Shown here piece by piece: positions 431-44,955 of a stretch of 64,000 nucleotides of DNA. Source of the DNA: Christensenellaceae bacterium (GTDB taxonomy: Bacteria > Bacillota > Clostridia > Christensenellales > Borkfalkiaceae); assembly GCA_045586885.1 (NCBI GenBank), contig JAZNBE010000016.1, forward strand, positions 12,757-76,756. The letters are read 5' to 3'. A model generated the notes under the pieces. It made no database searches. It had not been told where the DNA came from and saw only the letters and a program-made list of their open reading frames with translations. The translations under genes and the position numbers were made by a program. The stretch's first letter is position 1, and each line of letters opens with the position of its first letter.

Positions 431-1120
431 ATGAAATACGGTAAAAAATACGTTGATAGTAGAAAATCTTACGATCGCTCAACCTTATATGAAGTTGGCG
501 AGGCTATGGATATTGTATTAAACACTGCTAAAGCTAAATTCGATGAAACTGTTGAACTTCACGTAAAACTTGGCGTTGACCCTAAACAAGCCGACCAACA
601 AGTTCGTGGCGTTATCGTTTTACCTAACGGAACTGGTAAATCGGTTAAAGTTTTAGTTATTGCTAAAGGCGAAAAGGCTGACCAAGCTCAAGAAGCAGGC
701 GCTGAATTCGTTGGCGCTGAAGAAATCGTTGCTAAAATCCAAAAGGAAAACTGGTTCGATTTCGACGTTGTTATCACCACTCCTGATATGATGGGCGTTG
801 TTGGTAGAATTGGTAAACTCTTAGGTCCTAAAGGCTTAATGCCAAACCCTAAGTCAGGTACCGTTACTATGGACGTTGCTAAAGCGGTTAAAGACGCTAA
901 AGCAGGTAAGGTTGAATACAGACTTGATAAGCAAGCAATTATCCACTGCCCAATCGGCAAGAAGAGTTTTGGTAAAGAAAAACTTATCGAAAACTACAAT
1001 GCTTTATACGAAGCAATCGTTAAGGCTAAACCAGCAGCAGCAAAAGGTCAATACGTAAAGAGCGTAACCTTAGCAAGCACTATGGGTCCTGGCGTAAAAG
1101 TTTCTAACAAAACTCTTTAA
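431..1120 (+). CDS. rplA: 50S ribosomal protein L1
   Basis: GGAGG 9 nt upstream of ATG 431; [38 protein letters not shown] typical L1; follows rplK. Confidence 0.96.
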
Positions 1121-4145: not shown

Positions 4146-4397
4146 ATGATTAAGTCTGATTTAAGTTTCGAAACGGTAAGAAGGGCTATTGAAGGTCTTT
4201 GCAACCAAAAAGTGAAAATTACTCAAAATTTAGGTAGAAACAAATACGTCTCATATAAGGGGGTTGTGAGTGGGGTGTATCCTGCGCTATTTACCGTAAC
4301 GCCTGATCTTCCAAACAACTTCAAAACGAGTTTTTCATACGCCGAAGTTATCTGTGGCGACGTGAAAATTACAACTAACAGTGAAAAAAGGGGCTAA
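4146..4397 (+). CDS. veg: Veg-like protein (start uncertain: 4119 or 4146)
   Basis: ~85 aa; LGRNKYVSYKGVVSGVYPALFTV....SFSYAEVICGDVKI parallels B. subtilis Veg (GGRRK..G.L...YPSVF...SYSYADIL); veg-ispE neighbourhood resembles Bacillus. Confidence 0.75.
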   Translation: MIKSDLSFETVRRAIEGLCNQKVKITQNLGRNKYVSYKGVVSGVYPALFTVTPDLPNNFKTSFSYAEVICGDVKITTNSEKRG

Positions 4398-4411
4398 TAA
4401 GCCCTTTTTTT
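4391..4411 (+). terminator. terminator overlapping the veg stop codon
   Basis: GGGCT-AATA-AGCCC stem followed by T7. Confidence 0.6.
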
Positions 4412-4497
4412 GTTTATAAATTAAAAAAAGCATAACGTTCGTTCTAAAATAGAGCCGTTTAACATAATATTATTTAGAGAATTTTCGAGGTGATTAA

Positions 4498-5964
4498 ATG
4501 TTTCAAGCGGAATATGATAATTTTACTCTATGCGCTAAAAAATGCGTGCAAAAAAAGAACGAACTAGAATGTTCGCTTAACCTATCTTTAGACTATTTTG
4601 ATAAGATTTTATCAATTTCGGCAAAAATAGTTGAAACTACTGCGAGCATTGACGCAGGGCTCTTAATTTACGGCGGAACGGTAGTTTTTAATGCGATTTT
4701 CCAAAACGAAGAGTTAGAAAGAAACGAAGTTGGCGCAAAATTTTCGTTCTCTATGCCGATAGAAAAGCCTAGCGCAAACGAAAGCGTTAAATATCAAATT
4801 GATAACGTAAAAATCAAGAAAGAAGGCGGAATGCTTTTTGCCGTTTTAGAAATAACGGCTACTATTTGCTACGAAGAGCGTGAAGATAAAAAATATTTAA
4901 CTAGTTCAAATTGTTTATGCAATAAGGCAAAGAACACAAGCCTTTGCGATATTGAATTTTCTAACGTTTTCGATATTGAAGACGAGTTTGACGCAAAGCG
5001 CATAAAAAAGGTGCTTTGGCAAGATGCAAGAGCAAGCATTACTATGGCTGAAGTTAAAGAAAATTGCGTTATTTGCGATGGCGAAGTAACCTTATGCGTT
5101 TGTTTGTTGCCTTTTTTAGAAAATAGTGATATATTAAAAGAAGAAAGAATTATTCCTTTTAGATTTGAAGTTGACGTTCAGGGCGCTGAAAGTTTTATGC
5201 AAGCAAGAGCAAGCGCAAGCGTTGAAAAACTTCAACTTAAAGTTATAGTTGATGAAGAAAACAATAAATCAACAATAAATACTGAAATTGCCGTTAAAAT
5301 ATTTGGGTTTGTTCAAGGTGAAGTTGAAGAAGATTTTATAATCGACGTGTTTAGCCCTACCGTAGAATTAAAACCTAGTTTCGTCGAACGTTCTATCGAT
5401 AAGTTAGTTTCTCAAAACAGTTTTATTCACAAAATTTCGGGTAAAGCCATTTGCGACGTGCCTGAATATTCACGCTTTATAAAACTAATTTGCGAAAGTA
5501 TTGAATACACGTCTTCTAAAGAAAAAGATGAAATTTTATTAGTCGGCGTATTAAATGCGGACGCTTTATTTTCTTCAGGAGAGAACGAACTTATTTGTAA
5601 AAAAGCGTCTTTGCCGTTTAGTTTAAGCCTAAAAACTGACGGCGAAGATTTGGAATTAGAAGCCGTTTTACAAAGCGTTTCGGCAAAATTAAGAAGCGGT
5701 GCAATCGAAGTTGATTTAACGCTTAGAGTTTGCGAAGTAAAAACCAAAAAGTTGGTCTATAAGCTCGTAAACGACGTAATTGAAGGCGAATTAACGCCTG
5801 AAAACGATAGCGCTATTAGCGTTTATATTGCTCAAAAAGGCGATGATGAGTGGACCGTTATGAAGCGGTTACAAGTAGGGCTTGAAGAAATTTATAAGTT
5901 CAATAAAGATTTAGAATTTCCGCTCAAAGGCGATGAAAGAATTATCGTTTTTAGGCAAAAATAA
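4498..5964 (+). CDS. hypothetical protein (488 aa), possibly DUF3794-like sporulation-associated
   Basis: GAGGTG RBS; long uninterrupted ORF between veg and ispE; no motif I can name with certainty. Confidence 0.7.
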   Translation: MFQAEYDNFTLCAKKCVQKKNELECSLNLSLDYFDKILSISAKIVETTASIDAGLLIYGGTVVFNAIFQNEELERNEVGAKFSFSMPIEKPSANESVKYQIDNVKIKKEGGMLFAVLEITATICYEEREDKKYLTSSNCLCNKAKNTSLCDIEFSNVFDIEDEFDAKRIKKVLWQDARASITMAEVKENCVICDGEVTLCVCLLPFLENSDILKEERIIPFRFEVDVQGAESFMQARASASVEKLQLKVIVDEENNKSTINTEIAVKIFGFVQGEVEEDFIIDVFSPTVELKPSFVERSIDKLVSQNSFIHKISGKAICDVPEYSRFIKLICESIEYTSSKEKDEILLVGVLNADALFSSGENELICKKASLPFSLSLKTDGEDLELEAVLQSVSAKLRSGAIEVDLTLRVCEVKTKKLVYKLVNDVIEGELTPENDSAISVYIAQKGDDEWTVMKRLQVGLEEIYKFNKDLEFPLKGDERIIVFRQK

Positions 5965-5979
5965 AAAACGAGGTAACAA

Positions 5980-6891
5980 ATGAAAACGGTTAGAGAAAAG
6001 GCTTACGCTAAAATAAACTTGTTTTTAGATATTGTTGGGACTGATGAAAACGGCTATCATATGCTAGATACCGTCGTTTCAACTATTTCGCTTTTTGATA
6101 GCGTGGTGGTATCTTCTCGCCGTGATGATAAAATAGTGTTAAAAACCGCAGGGAGTTTATATTCCGTAACCGATGGTTTTGATAATAACGCCTATAAAGC
6201 GGCAAAACTTTTTCAAGAAACGTTTAACACTAAAGGCGTTGATATAACGCTAAATAAAAATATACCTGTTGCTAGTGGGCTTGGCGGTTCTTCTGCCGAT
6301 ATTGCCGGCGTTTTGAAGGCGATGAAGAAACTTTTTAAGGTTGAAGAAGATATTAAACCTATTGCCGATAAACTTGGTAGCGATTCTGGGTATCTTTTAA
6401 CCGGTGGCTTTGCAAGGCTTTCAGGCAGAGGCGAAATTGTTGAAAGTTTAGATTTAACGAATAAACTTTATCTTGTAATTGGAATAGCAAAAGGTGGAGT
6501 GAATACGGCTGATTGTTATAAAGAATATGATAATCAACAAGTTACGCCAATTAAAAACGGCTCGAGGGGGCTTATTGAAAACCTTAAAAACAATAAAGTA
6601 TGCGAAAGTGATTTTTATAACGCTCTCTATCTTCCGGCAACTAAAATAAACGAAAAAGTTAAAGAACTTTATGAAGATATGAAAGCGTTATCGCCAAAAG
6701 CGGTAGCAATGAGCGGAAGCGGAAGTAGTGTTTACGCTATTTTTGATTCGTTTGAACTCACCGAGTGGGCGCGGTTGAAACTAAACAAAAAATATAAAGA
6801 CGTTTTTACCGCCGAAACTTTAACCGTTAATGAAATGAATAAGATAGGTCTTTTTGGAAGAACGCCATATAGACTTGAAGAAGAAAATTAA
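5980..6891 (+). CDS. ispE: 4-diphosphocytidyl-2-C-methyl-D-erythritol kinase
   Basis: KAYAKINLFLDIVG..DGYH N-terminus; GHMP kinase motif PVASGLGGSSADIAG. Confidence 0.92.
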   Translation: MKTVREKAYAKINLFLDIVGTDENGYHMLDTVVSTISLFDSVVVSSRRDDKIVLKTAGSLYSVTDGFDNNAYKAAKLFQETFNTKGVDITLNKNIPVASGLGGSSADIAGVLKAMKKLFKVEEDIKPIADKLGSDSGYLLTGGFARLSGRGEIVESLDLTNKLYLVIGIAKGGVNTADCYKEYDNQQVTPIKNGSRGLIENLKNNKVCESDFYNALYLPATKINEKVKELYEDMKALSPKAVAMSGSGSSVYAIFDSFELTEWARLKLNKKYKDVFTAETLTVNEMNKIGLFGRTPYRLEEEN

Positions 6892-6910
6892 AAAGTTAAA
6901 AAAATAAAAC

Positions 6911-7308
6911 AAAAACGCAACCAAAATGCGTGATCTTCTTAGCGGAGAATTTGAAAAGTGCCTCTAAGTGCGAGCATCGCATTTGTCTGGTCAAATGCAA
7001 AATGGGCTAAGCCCAAACCCTTATTACACGCAGAAAGAGATAACAAATCGGTTCGTAGCCGAAATGTTATCTCTTTTTTCTGCTTGGCGATATGTTTGCA
7101 AGCAAACGCGATATACTCGCTTTGCTCGTGCGATATATTGTCGTTTCGCTCCAATGCGATATGATATAAATCCCCTCACGCCCCGCAGGGCATATCGCAA
7201 GGCGTAGGCCTTATATCGCTCCCGCAAGGGAATATCGCAGATCCCGTAAGGGATTTATATCGCTGCGTGTTCTCCGTTAAGGATAACACGCTAAAAGGTT
7301 GCGTTTTT
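6911..7308. repeat. ~400-bp non-coding palindromic mosaic element (39-nt imperfect terminal inverted repeats, mirrored GCGATAT/ATATCGC heptamer arrays, multiple mini-hairpins)
   Basis: Left arm 6911-6949 vs reverse complement of right arm 7270-7308 (~31/39 identical). GCGATAT at 7087, 7108, 7130, 7156; ATATCGC at 7192, 7213, 7232, 7257. GNRA-type hairpins TCCC-GCAA-GGGA and ATCCC-GTAA-GGGAT. Only short overlapping ORFs. Confidence 0.75.
7035..7080 (+). terminator. terminator-like long hairpin inside the mosaic element (possible ispE terminator)
   Basis: AAGAGATAAC (7035-7044) pairs with GTTATCTCTT (7066-7075), followed by a T-run. Confidence 0.5.
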
Positions 7309-7382
7309 TATATTCGTTTTTGTTTAAGATAAAAATTTTTCGTTAATAATTATAGTATCACAATTTTTTGGGAGAGAAAAAA

Positions 7383-8641: not shown

Positions 8642-10498
8642 ATGATGGAAAACAAGAAGAATAACGCAACCGAAAAGGTTGAAAATATAACAAACGAAAC
8701 TTCTAAAGAAACAAAAACCGAGAAGAGTTCAAAGCCTACAAGTTCTAATAAATCCGCTCAAAAAAAGGCGGAAGATGCTAGAACTAAAAAAGCCGTTCAA
8801 AAAAAGAACGAAAAAAAGGCTAAGCAAACGGCAAAAAGCCAAAAAAAGAGCGAGCGCCAAAAAAATAAGGAACTCAAAAGAGAACTTAATAGAAAGAAGC
8901 GTGAAGATTGGAAAAAAGAGCGCTTAAGAAGAAAGGAAGAGCGTCTTGCTCGCCGTGATATGTTAAAAAAGGAAACGAAAGCTGAAAAGCAAAAACGAAT
9001 TCAAGCCGAAAAGCAGGCAAAATTAAAAGAACGCCTCGCAAAAAGAGAACAAAAAATTAAAAGGCTTGAAGAAAAAAATGCAATCCGTCGCCAAAAACTT
9101 GCCGATAAGAGAATTGAAAGAGAGCAAAAAATGCGCGATAGAAGAGAGCATAAAAAAGAGCGTTCAAGAAAAGGGCTTGGCGGTTGGATTACCGCAGTTT
9201 CAGTTCTTGGCGCGTCAACTTTAGCCCTAGCAACGCTTTTCACTCTTTCTATGACTACGCCACTTGGTTCTAATAACGATATGAATATCGTAGGCGGAGT
9301 TGACGAGGCTTTTTACGAATTCGTTGATATGGTAAACGATATGGACGTAAATTTATCTAAACTCGTAGTATCAACCGATGAAAAATCGCAACAAAAAATC
9401 TTGAGCGAACTCGTTGTTTCATCAACATTAGCGGAAAGCGCCGTATCAAGATTACCGCTAAAAGACGAGAGCCGTTTTTACACTATGAAATACGTAAACC
9501 AAGTGGGCGACTTCTCAAAATACCTTAATAACAAACTTATAGACGGGGATTTATTAGATAAAGAAGATAAGAAAAACGTTTCGGCTTTATATGAAATTAC
9601 TAATAATTTAAAGAACGAAATTAACAAGGCTGTCGATGGTATGGGTGAAGATTTTGATTTTATGACCATGCTTGACGAGAATAGTGATAACGTCGTGCTT
9701 AAGGCTTTTAATAATTTAGAATCTAACGCGATTGATTATCCTACCTTAATTTACGACGGACCTTTTAGCGATGGGCTTGAAACTAAAAAGCCGAAGAACT
9801 TAAACGGTAAAGAAATAAATTTGGTTGAAGCAAGAGAAGTTTTTGAAAAGGCTTTTCAAGGTTATAACGTAAAGGAAGTAGAAGACCTTGGCGAGTTAAA
9901 CTCTAAGATTGAAACTTATAACTTTGAGGCTCAATCAAACGGAACGGTTCTATTTGCCGAAATTTCAAAAAAAGGTGGAGAAGTTATCAGTTTTAACACC
10001 TTCGCCGATTGTTTTAACAAAAACTACTCTTTAGACGATTGCATTGAAATAGGCTATGAACTTATTGAGAGTTTTGGAATTTCAGGTATGACTGCCGTTT
10101 GGGCAACCGAAAGCGGAGCAACGGCGTTTATAAATTACGCTTACGAAACTCAAGACGCTATTTGTTATCCTGATATGATTAAAGTTGCCGTTTGTATGGA
10201 AAGGGGATTAGTTTCTAATTACGATGCTAGAGAATACTATCTAAACCACCAAACTAGAAAAGTTGAAAAACCAAAACTATCTAGCGAAGAGGCAATCAAA
10301 AAGGTTAATAAAGACTTAAAAGTTGATACCGTTCGTTTAGCAATCGTGCCAAAGAGTTCGGAAAAAGAAGTTTTAGCATATGAAATTTCTGGCGTTTATA
10401 ATGATAATTTATATTACGTTTATATTGATGCTTTAACTGGTAGGGAAGTTAGCGTTTTCAAGGTAGTTGAAAACACTGAAGGCAAACTTTTAGTTTAA
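8642..10498 (+). CDS. ypeB: germination protein YpeB-like with ~175-aa Lys/Glu/Arg-rich N-terminal extension
   Basis: Immediately downstream of sleB; single TM (WITAVSVLGASTLALATLFTL); IYDGPFSD motif; PepSY-like C-terminal repeats. Confidence 0.8.
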   Translation: MMENKKNNATEKVENITNETSKETKTEKSSKPTSSNKSAQKKAEDARTKKAVQKKNEKKAKQTAKSQKKSERQKNKELKRELNRKKREDWKKERLRRKEERLARRDMLKKETKAEKQKRIQAEKQAKLKERLAKREQKIKRLEEKNAIRRQKLADKRIEREQKMRDRREHKKERSRKGLGGWITAVSVLGASTLALATLFTLSMTTPLGSNNDMNIVGGVDEAFYEFVDMVNDMDVNLSKLVVSTDEKSQQKILSELVVSSTLAESAVSRLPLKDESRFYTMKYVNQVGDFSKYLNNKLIDGDLLDKEDKKNVSALYEITNNLKNEINKAVDGMGEDFDFMTMLDENSDNVVLKAFNNLESNAIDYPTLIYDGPFSDGLETKKPKNLNGKEINLVEAREVFEKAFQGYNVKEVEDLGELNSKIETYNFEAQSNGTVLFAEISKKGGEVISFNTFADCFNKNYSLDDCIEIGYELIESFGISGMTAVWATESGATAFINYAYETQDAICYPDMIKVAVCMERGLVSNYDAREYYLNHQTRKVEKPKLSSEEAIKKVNKDLKVDTVRLAIVPKSSEKEVLAYEISGVYNDNLYYVYIDALTGREVSVFKVVENTEGKLLV

Positions 10499-44490: not shown

Positions 44491-44519
44491 TTGCAATTTT
44501 AATTATGGTTTGATAGAAT
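44491..44519 (+). promoter_or_regulatory. promoter of tRNA-Gln
   Basis: TTGCAA, 17-nt spacer, TAGAAT with upstream TG; ~19 nt before the tRNA 5' end. Confidence 0.6.
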
Positions 44520-44537: not shown

Positions 44538-44612
44538 TGGGGTATCGCCAAGCGGTAAGGCCTCGGACTCTGACTCCGCTACTCGTAGGTTCGAATCCTA
44601 CTACCCCAGCCA
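44538..44612 (+). tRNA. tRNA-Gln (anticodon CUG)
   Basis: 75 nt, TGGGGTATCGCCAAGCGGTAAGGC.. nearly identical in arms to known bacterial tRNA-Gln; anticodon loop CTCTGAC; GGTTCGAATCC T-arm; encoded CCA. Confidence 0.93.
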
Positions 44613-44613
44613 A

Positions 44614-44651
44614 GAAAGAACCAGTTGAACCATAGTTCAACTGGTTCTTTC
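44614..44651 (+). other. 17-bp perfect hairpin directly after the tRNA
   Basis: GAAAGAACCAGTTGAAC-CATA-GTTCAACTGGTTCTTTC; no clear T-tract. Confidence 0.85.
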
Positions 44652-44848
44652 AGTTATATTCGCCTTGCGGCGAGTGATATGCGTAAACGCGTGATATTTG
44701 TTTCGCAAGTGATATGCGCTTTGCGCGCTGAAGATTACAAGGCGAATATAATATCACTGTGAGCATAATTCGCGAAGCAAATTGGCGAACAATATCACTA
44801 CGAGCGCAGCGAGTAATATCACGCCGAGCAAAGCGAGGCATATCACCA
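44652..44848. repeat. second mosaic element related to 6911-7308 (mirrored GTGATAT/ATATCAC heptamers)
   Basis: GTGATAT at 44674, 44691, 44709; ATATCAC at 44751, 44792, 44816, 44840. The 13-mer CGAGCAAAGCGAG (44825-44837) is the exact reverse complement of CTCGCTTTGCTCG at 7116-7128. 10-bp pairing TATATTCGCC/GGCGAATATA. Confidence 0.7.
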
Positions 44849-44955
44849 AAAAACGCACGAGTTCAAGTCCATACAAAAATTCTTGAAAATATCTTTTTTG
44901 TCCGCTCTTCGCAATAACAGCGAGTGCTTTTTTAGCACTCGCTTTTTTACTTTGA

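Follow-up and report, generated by a model that had tools for sequence, protein, structure and literature searches.

The structured motif Gut-1 (RF01706) was reported solely from human-gut metagenome sequence, where it was rated 'RNA? Y' and had no function, host organism or genomic context assigned (Weinberg et al. 2010, PMC2864571). We found no literature on Gut-1 later than this description. Here we analysed a palindromic region between the genes ispE and spoIIR in a 64-kb stretch of a Christensenellaceae contig (JAZNBE010000016.1); the whole stretch is called the window in the following. An earlier note on this region had seen one element that belongs to no known family. Neither view was borne out: a host terminator, a chassis element and an array module are nested in each other here, and the array module is, judged from its sequence, an extended and mirror-doubled member of the Gut-1 family.

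As in Gut-1, the array module contains three short hairpins that are flanked and separated by four heptamers, a strong hairpin lies in front, and the sequences are of the gut Firmicutes type. The two differ in the heptamer, which is GCGAUAU here and GUGAAAU in the model consensus. Furthermore, the published model covers only the 5' half, and its description includes neither the mirror array nor a copied hairpin arm (X''), nor the mobility, the multiple copies, the presence in phages and the nesting in a second element.

Repetitive extragenic palindromic (REP) sequences and bacterial interspersed mosaic elements (BIMEs; also REPINs) of Enterobacteria and Pseudomonas are likewise short palindromes outside genes, in which a hairpin adjoins a conserved single-stranded motif. 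They also form mosaic clusters of many copies, mostly just past gene 3' ends, with inverted doublets that give larger hairpins. However, REP hairpins are conserved in sequence per genome and their GTAG motif is read by RAYT, whereas here the hairpins vary and the motif is a 7-mer. Units of GTAGGG plus hairpin are absent from the 64-kb window, so that we rejected a dependence on GTAG-type REPs, and no RAYT was found. Miniature inverted-repeat transposable elements (MITEs) and modular repeats of Firmicutes, such as the pneumococcal BOX A-Bn-C and RUP, also share features with the studied element: they are non-coding, bounded by terminal inverted repeats (TIRs), a few hundred bp long and highly structured, they occur at several unrelated intergenic sites with an empty site in a relative, and their internal units vary in number. 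In contrast to these, we identified no target-site duplication and no parent insertion sequence, the internal units share 7 nt only, and the insertion is in a hairpin loop.

Some mobile elements target palindromes or terminators, for instance IS1397 and ISKpn1 in REP loops, and class C group II introns after terminators. The likeness is in target choice only, with the chassis in a terminator-type loop and array units usually right after a perfect hairpin at a gene 3' end; the studied element has no open reading frame (ORF), intron or ribozyme features. Finally, arrays of clustered regularly interspaced short palindromic repeats (CRISPR) also alternate identical short repeats with unique spacers, and their repeats are uniform per array and differ between arrays of one genome. 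Here, however, the repeats have 7 nt and not at least about 21 nt, the spacers are self-complementary hairpins of 9–20 nt, there are at most 4–5 units followed by a mirror array, cas genes are missing, and clustering of neighbouring ORFs revealed no cas-like recurrent neighbours. CRISPR, type III toxin-antitoxin repeats, retron or diversity-generating retroelement RNA, and a riboswitch or leader were all rejected because their defining features are absent.

The ispE terminator and the chassis element

The flanking genes are, as the earlier note had named them, an ispE-type GHMP kinase gene and spoIIR. The closest homologue of this ispE (82% identity) was found in a sister genome, on contig locus L242, which has the gene order SipL-domain gene, ispE, spoIIR, sleB and ypeB in common with the window. 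In L242, the spacer between ispE and spoIIR is 109 nt long and holds an intact intrinsic terminator with a 6-nt loop, AGCGCAACC-TAAAAA-GGTTTGCGCT, followed by T7. Both arms of this terminator are present on the plus strand of the window. The 5' arm (ACGCAACC, 6915..6922) has the same place after ispE as in L242, and the 3' arm (GGTTGCGT, 7297–7304) with its T-run (7297..7310 together) aligns with the 3' arm of L242. The spoIIR promoter block downstream of the terminator is also kept between the two loci. Between the arms, 374 nt in the window stand in for the 6-nt terminator loop of L242. The studied feature is a nested insertion within the loop of the ispE intrinsic terminator, and L242 is the empty site, so that the chassis shows the presence and absence between relatives that is expected of a MITE.

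The comparison with L242 also clarifies the ends of the insertion, for which 39-nt TIRs had been proposed. The inverted repeat is real, with 71% complementarity over 52 nt (6898–6949 vs 7270–7321), but it is composite. Since L242 holds the same arms as an intact terminator, the outer part (ACGCAACC / GGTTGCGT) belongs to the host as the stem of its ispE terminator, which leaves just the inner part as the TIR of the element itself.

The chassis is a non-coding element of 364 nt with GCGTG...CACGC ends (6928..7291), for which we use the minus strand as the canonical orientation. It is absent in L242 and homologous to sequences at three other loci (L027, L240 and L241). It starts with hairpin P0, which is also the 5' TIR (GCGUGUUAUCC-UUAAC-GGAGAACACGC, 7265..7291, minus strand) and is kept in L027, L117, L240 and L241. 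The 3' TIR (UUCUCCGCUAAGAAGAUCACGC, 6928..6949, minus strand) is complementary to the P0 region at about 17 of 22 positions (GCGTGTTATCCTTAACGGAGAA vs the reverse complement of TTCTCCGCTAAGAAGATCACGC). An 18-bp hairpin with A-run and T-run flanks (7034..7082) is kept in L027, L240 and L241; on the plus strand it resembles a terminator that would stop read-through from ispE, and on the minus strand it is U-tailed too. The 3' part of the chassis (6950..7033, minus strand) comprises a GGGUUUGGGCUUAGCCC hairpin, UUUGACCAGACAAAUGCGAUGCUCGCAC and CUGCGUG, and is about 90% identical to L027. The segments CACGCAG (7027–7033) and CTGCGTG (7263–7269), which had been proposed to pair, are both present.

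The homologue L027, from an Oscillospiraceae metagenome-assembled genome (MAG), aligns with the chassis over about 390 nt at 83% identity, from GCGTGTTATCC in hairpin P0 to an end in ...ATCAC(G/C)C. Its flanks are unrelated to those of the window, yet here too they are inverted repeats of each other, with A- and T-runs (AATTCCTCTGCCATA / TATGGTAGAGGAATT), and its neighbour genes, a nucleotidase and a GH2 hydrolase, are unlike the window's. While the chassis is about 90% identical between the window and L027, hairpins P3 and P5–P7 of the array are unrelated. A 27-mer from the conserved 3' chassis part led to the metagenome contigs L240 and L241, which have in common P0, the long hairpin, a GGGTT.GGCTTAGCCC hairpin, the 27-mer and the 3' TIR. 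Their chassis lies inside a further flanking stem (GCACAGAG / CTCTGTGC), and the arrays are replaced by about 85 nt with only a degenerate two-unit GUGAAGU-hairpin-GUGAAUU.

In total, the chassis was found in the loop of a terminator-type hairpin at four loci in three independent contexts, and L027, L240 and L241 are homologous copies in unrelated contexts, as for MITEs. A MITE-like element had been one suggestion of the earlier note, and it is supported by these copies and by the empty site in L242. Because the chassis sits in unrelated stems and L240 and L241 are without arrays, we infer from the sequence comparison that the chassis moves between hairpin loops and that the array is a separable module inside it.

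The array module and its relation to Gut-1

The array module (7087–7263, 177 nt) sits between P0 and the internal terminator-like hairpin. We confirmed GCGATAT on the plus strand at 7087, 7108, 7130 and 7156, and ATATCGC at 7192, 7213, 7232 and 7257. The window contains 27 copies of GCGATAT or its complement compared to 7.9 ± 2.7 expected (0 of 100 shuffles reach 27), and eight of them are packed within the module. The spacers are differing mini-hairpins, including CCC-GCAA-GGG and CCC-GTAA-GGG, and each minus-strand GCGAUAU copy is flush with the short hairpin behind it. The folding potential described for the region was recovered on both strands, with z = −10.6 (plus) and z = −9.7 (minus) against shuffles of a 439-nt region. 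The region had also been called non-coding, and indeed its four overlapping ORFs have no Pfam match and homologues differ by indels of 1–2 nt. A coding function was rejected on the basis of the missing Pfam matches and these frame-breaking indels.

Read on the minus strand, the module begins with the 5' array (7192..7263), which has four GCGAUAU and hairpins P1–P3 and is the stretch that matches Gut-1. The centre (7163..7191) holds the P4 hairpin (7180–7191), a GUGAG linker and X'' (GGGAUUUAUAUC, 7174–7163), recognised as a 12-nt perfect inverted repeat. X'' is a copy of the 3' arm of P1 and can pair with GAUAU plus the 5' arm of P1 (7250–7261). The 3' mirror array (7087..7162), defined by heptamer and hairpin positions, has four AUAUCGC and hairpins P5–P7. 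P5 and P6 have a tandem G.A/A.G internal loop, which is frequent in the family.

In an Rfam search, the region had a single match, Gut-1 (7265–7187, minus strand, 35 bits, E = 1.7e-4), and no match to any other family. The match spans the full model (1–77), with all three stems placed and four 7-nt linkers that read GCGAUAU in place of GUGAAAU. The scan proposed in the earlier note thus returned a family, but at a score under the gathering score of 50 bits, which is reached by neither copy in the window (35.0 and 48.5 bits). The published Gut-1 alignment already includes members with GUGAUAU and GCGAUAU. The mirror array and the copied arm can also be recognised in its flanks: in BAAZ01000095.1, GUGAUAU... 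is followed by GGCGAAUAUA and four AUAUCAC. The published model is thus the 5' half of a larger architecture.

A second family member, identified by its Gut-1 match and its fold (z = −6.7), lies on the plus strand at 44613..44846, directly after tRNA-Gln (44538–44612). It comprises P0 (44613–44651, 17-bp stem), GUUAUAU/GUGAUAU three times, X'' (44741–44750) and AUAUCAC four times. A whole-window Rfam search with an E-value threshold placed Gut-1 at 44651–44720 (plus strand, 48.5 bits), with a mirror match at 44746–44848 (minus strand). The element lies between the tRNA promoter (TTGCAA...TAGAAT, ~44491–44519) and a terminator about 70 nt downstream (44919–44948). A strict generic k-mer and hairpin scan of the window recovered only the studied copy and missed this one. 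An empty site was not found via the neighbouring beta-helix protein, which belongs to a multi-copy family and has its best match at a non-syntenic position. The two array elements of the window point in opposite orientations.

To survey the family, we looked for three spaced GCGATAT copies in a single genome of each species, which yielded at least 120 loci. About 65–70 of these are hairpin-spaced arrays, nearly all from MAGs of gut or rumen Clostridia (including Oscillospiraceae, Ruminococcaceae and Acutalibacteraceae). About 28 full modules share the same order in the minus-strand orientation of the window: P0 is followed by four GCGAUAU, which alternate with P1, P2 and P3; the middle consists of the G...C P4 hairpin, a GWGA linker and X'' (the copy of the P1 3' arm) with AUAUC; and the 3' side consists of four AUAUCGC, which alternate with P5, P6 and P7. 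Unit numbers per array range from 3 to 5, and the heptamer period is broad, with 16–27 nt and up to 50. Among 247 spacers, 218 are distinct, and 74% adjoin the heptamers without a gap. About 97% of the stem pairs are Watson-Crick. X and X'' covary across loci, with eight sequence types, and in an RNAalifold consensus of 16 modules the heptamers pair across the halves and 17 of 43 consensus pairs have double-sided changes. The heptamers of the two halves also covary (GCGAUAU/AUAUCGC vs GUGAUAU/AUAUCAC), both within the window and in the published Gut-1 flanks. One locus (L060, 1660–1960) has two convergent 5'-type arrays with their own P0 each, unlike the usual module of 5' and 3' halves, and a near-identical copy of one of them occurs elsewhere in the same MAG (L009, 4300–4460).

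Genomic context and phage copies

With tblastn of the window's neighbour proteins against the at least 120 loci, we found neither ispE nor spoIIR at any other array locus and thus rejected synteny with these genes. Several MAGs hold more than one array locus, and in one locus (L044) four arrays lie within 8 kb, interspersed with housekeeping genes. When all neighbour ORFs were clustered against each other, there was no recurrent partner and no transposase, with the exception of genes for a 23S_rRNA_IVP four-helix-bundle protein (four loci by clustering, six by tblastn) and RumA-like genes (three loci). The 23S_rRNA_IVP genes (PF05635, Avd-like), which are small and have 73–91% identity, directly adjoin arrays in L032, L041, L058, L064, L068 (truncated) and L082, and on their sense strand an array reading AUAUCGC always precedes. 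For these genes, a role as mobile cassette or as binding partner is possible.

Arrays mostly begin right after a gene 3' end, and about two-thirds are co-oriented with their neighbours (a ratio of ~2:1 that is based on rough ORF calling). At several loci (L058, L068, L107, L042 and L090), the gene upstream of the array provides the 5' arm of P0 with its final codons. For instance, the conserved C-terminal codons of the RumA-like methyltransferase (...HVETIACL) are the P0 5' arm in L058 (~6080–6116) and L068 (~975–1015, minus strand). The 3' arm of P0 is thus a perfect inverted copy of host coding sequence, which suggests fold-back or template-switch synthesis at insertion or later. L139 and L014 alone showed direct repeats on both sides of the array, of 18 nt and 8 nt (GCGCGACA), respectively, and such repeats do not represent a general target-site duplication. 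In L139, a viral contig, a full array module (4330–4560) is flanked by the 18-nt repeat CCCGGCTAAGCGAGCCGC, which includes the stop codon of the upstream gene.

True arrays were present in two of 119 viral-contig loci that were fetched for the heptamer pattern. The phage contig L219 (IMG/VR) has three near-identical units of P0 and array (5008–5077, 7057–7150 and 10041–10160) in intergenic gaps of its structural operon, between terminase, portal, Prp and capsid genes, and the homology of these units begins exactly at P0. The same 10.6-kb stretch also contains 14 REP-like units of GTAGGG plus hairpin. Similar GTAGGGG+hairpin units adjoin or flank arrays in L013, L015, L016 (on both sides), L036, L040, L055 and L080, as BIME-like mosaics. 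A blastn search with the studied region against phage and plasmid collections gave no match.

The window as a whole has a GC content of about 36%, and since the cumulative GC skew climbs throughout, its plus strand is apparently the leading strand. At 1159–1289 of the plus strand lies a ribosomal protein L10 leader (RF00557), with 50.4 bits and thus over its gathering score.

Interpretation of the arrays

We give about an even chance to the reading that the arrays are a REP/BIME- or MITE-like palindromic repeat that folds as a single strand and is recognised by its heptamers. The array would fold either as RNA once transcribed or as single-stranded DNA, and extrusion of the hairpins would bring the invariant heptamers next to each other. 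Where the array is doubled, heptamers from both halves would pair and give a rod of 7-bp helices with four-way junctions between them. The heptamers, and not the hairpins, would be recognised by a putative trans-acting protein that reads GYGAUAU/AUAUCRC. The family would spread and duplicate beside or inside terminator-like hairpins and so be interspersed in gut Clostridia and their phages, while its perfect stems would be maintained by selection, by palindrome-correcting template switching, or by both. The studied copy is probably a passenger between ispE and spoIIR; its arrays are positioned behind the chassis hairpin and T-run with respect to ispE read-through.

Several observations weigh against this reading. 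The chassis flanks on the minus strand (TTTTA before and ATTTT after the element in the window, CCATA and TATGG in L027, TTTTA and TTTCTT in L240) would permit a TA duplication, but inconsistently, and a clean target-site duplication is not readable at any of the three. We saw no transposase or cognate protein among the fetched loci, where no search was aimed at an autonomous relative. MITE copies of one genome are normally near-identical; hairpins that differ in almost every copy look more like long-term selection on structure. In addition, single-nucleotide variants of the heptamer are mostly without compensation, and since the heptamers hardly vary, heptamer–heptamer pairing is not separable from plain DNA inverted repetition. 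Many loci consist of the 5' half alone, so that the rod is not obligatory. Lastly, a TGnTAnAAT −10 box abuts P0 upstream in L032, L004, L041, L051 and L074, and the second element of the window lies in the tRNA-Gln transcription unit. It follows that some copies, at least, are transcribed in the orientation of Gut-1.

These signs of transcription also speak for a genuine structured non-coding RNA, that is, a longer Gut-1 small RNA transcribed in the GCGAUAU orientation, which is the main rival reading and which we regard as plausible but hold only tentatively. Here, the four to five single-stranded heptamers between clamp hairpins would be a multivalent sponge or binding platform, with an RNA-binding protein or a nuclease as its ligand; the 3' mirror array with the alternative pairing of X and X'' would be a built-in lid or switch, and the chassis and the terminator-loop position would merely secure transcription. 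The earlier note had listed a structured RNA among its options. The Gut-1 matches of 35 and 48.5 bits, sub-threshold as they are, and the Y rating of the motif are consistent with it, as are the plentiful compensatory changes in the hairpins and a covarying triple X/X'/X'' that is typical of alternative RNA pairings. Moreover, the phage copies are sense-oriented within the late operon, and the orthologous RumA-linked copies of L058 and L068 retain their hairpins despite different sequences. However, for the studied copy we found no promoter-like site on the minus strand; this copy lies behind a terminator-like hairpin and, like all arrays of L044, is among the roughly one-third of copies that are antisense to their neighbours. 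A conserved gene association is absent save for the minority beside 23S_rRNA_IVP genes, and just 3% of the stem pairs are not Watson-Crick, which is unusually low for an RNA family. The choice of strand points in the same direction. Each half of a full module folds better as its AUAUCGC-reading strand, where the loops are of the C(GNA/GNNA)G type (33 v 7 and 33 v 8; for G.U pairs, 6 v 1 and 10 v 1). For the 5' half, this is the strand opposite to the supposed RNA. Loops of the C(GNA/GNNA)G type are especially stable in DNA. Because folding favours the AUAUCGC strand in each half and the orientation to neighbours is only ~2:1, a strictly one-strand RNA gene is argued against. These counts are small, though, and single arrays are unbiased (G.U 7 v A.C 6), which speaks against the repeat reading.

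The near-perfect stems, the change of P3 and P5–P7 on a nearly constant chassis, the inverted upstream coding sequence in P0 (RumA codons in L058 and L068, and further cases in L107, L042 and L090) and the variation from 3 to 5 units would also result if the arrays were functionless by-products of replication template switching or slippage at terminator hairpins. No dedicated machinery would then be involved, and arrays would be seeded by quasi-palindrome correction and inverted duplication and spread by recombination between copies. We consider this unlikely because a purely mutational process would not hold constant both a heptamer that is identical across many Clostridia families and phages and a fixed architecture, namely four units, a G...C P4 hairpin with GWGA behind it, and the X'' copy. 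We regard it as similarly improbable that the arrays are a repeat-spacer-like system that diversifies actively. Its 7-mers would be duplicated target sites or templated repeats, and its hairpins would be made or replaced by a dedicated mechanism, which could be fold-back synthesis or insertion. Such a system would explain unrelated hairpins on a ~90% identical chassis together with 97% Watson-Crick stems, heptamers that are uniform per element and differ between two elements of one genome, and P0 arms inverted from adjacent host coding sequence. In a related reading, the folded strand could be a stack of four-way junctions that acts as a nucleic-acid scaffold, and where an Avd-like 23S_rRNA_IVP four-helix-bundle protein is encoded next to the array, as at a minority of loci, this protein might be the partner of the scaffold. 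We give very little credence to the iteron-like array considered in the earlier note, in which the eight heptamers would be double-stranded binding sites of a repressor, a partition protein or an initiator protein, as in plasmid iterons or ribbon-helix-helix operators. It is true that the direct-then-inverted heptamers of the studied copy are about two helical turns apart (19–26 nt), and AUAUCAC-type heptamers resemble the WATCACW heptads that are bound by the omega protein of pSM19035. Across the family, however, the spread of the period (16–27 nt, up to 50) shows no helical phasing, and the spacers are always heptamer-flush hairpins, which binding to double-stranded DNA does not need. Furthermore, no rep, par or regulator gene is linked to the studied copy, which has ispE, spoIIR and sleB as neighbours, and the blastn search in plasmids and phages was without a match.

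Gut-1, an orphan motif since 2010, now gains hosts, namely Oscillospirales-type gut and rumen Clostridia and their phages, and its published model is one half of a mirror-symmetric module. This module occurs in multiple copies, duplicates and can be separated from its carrier, and it can ride in another element whose landing sites are terminator loops. Annotation will mistake such arrays for small RNA genes, and intrinsic terminators are split by the insertions. The arrays are also likely hot spots for rearrangement and for assembly errors in gut MAGs. The family is a candidate clostridial counterpart of REP/BIME, and an unusual one, as it combines invariant 7-mers with hypervariable perfect hairpins.

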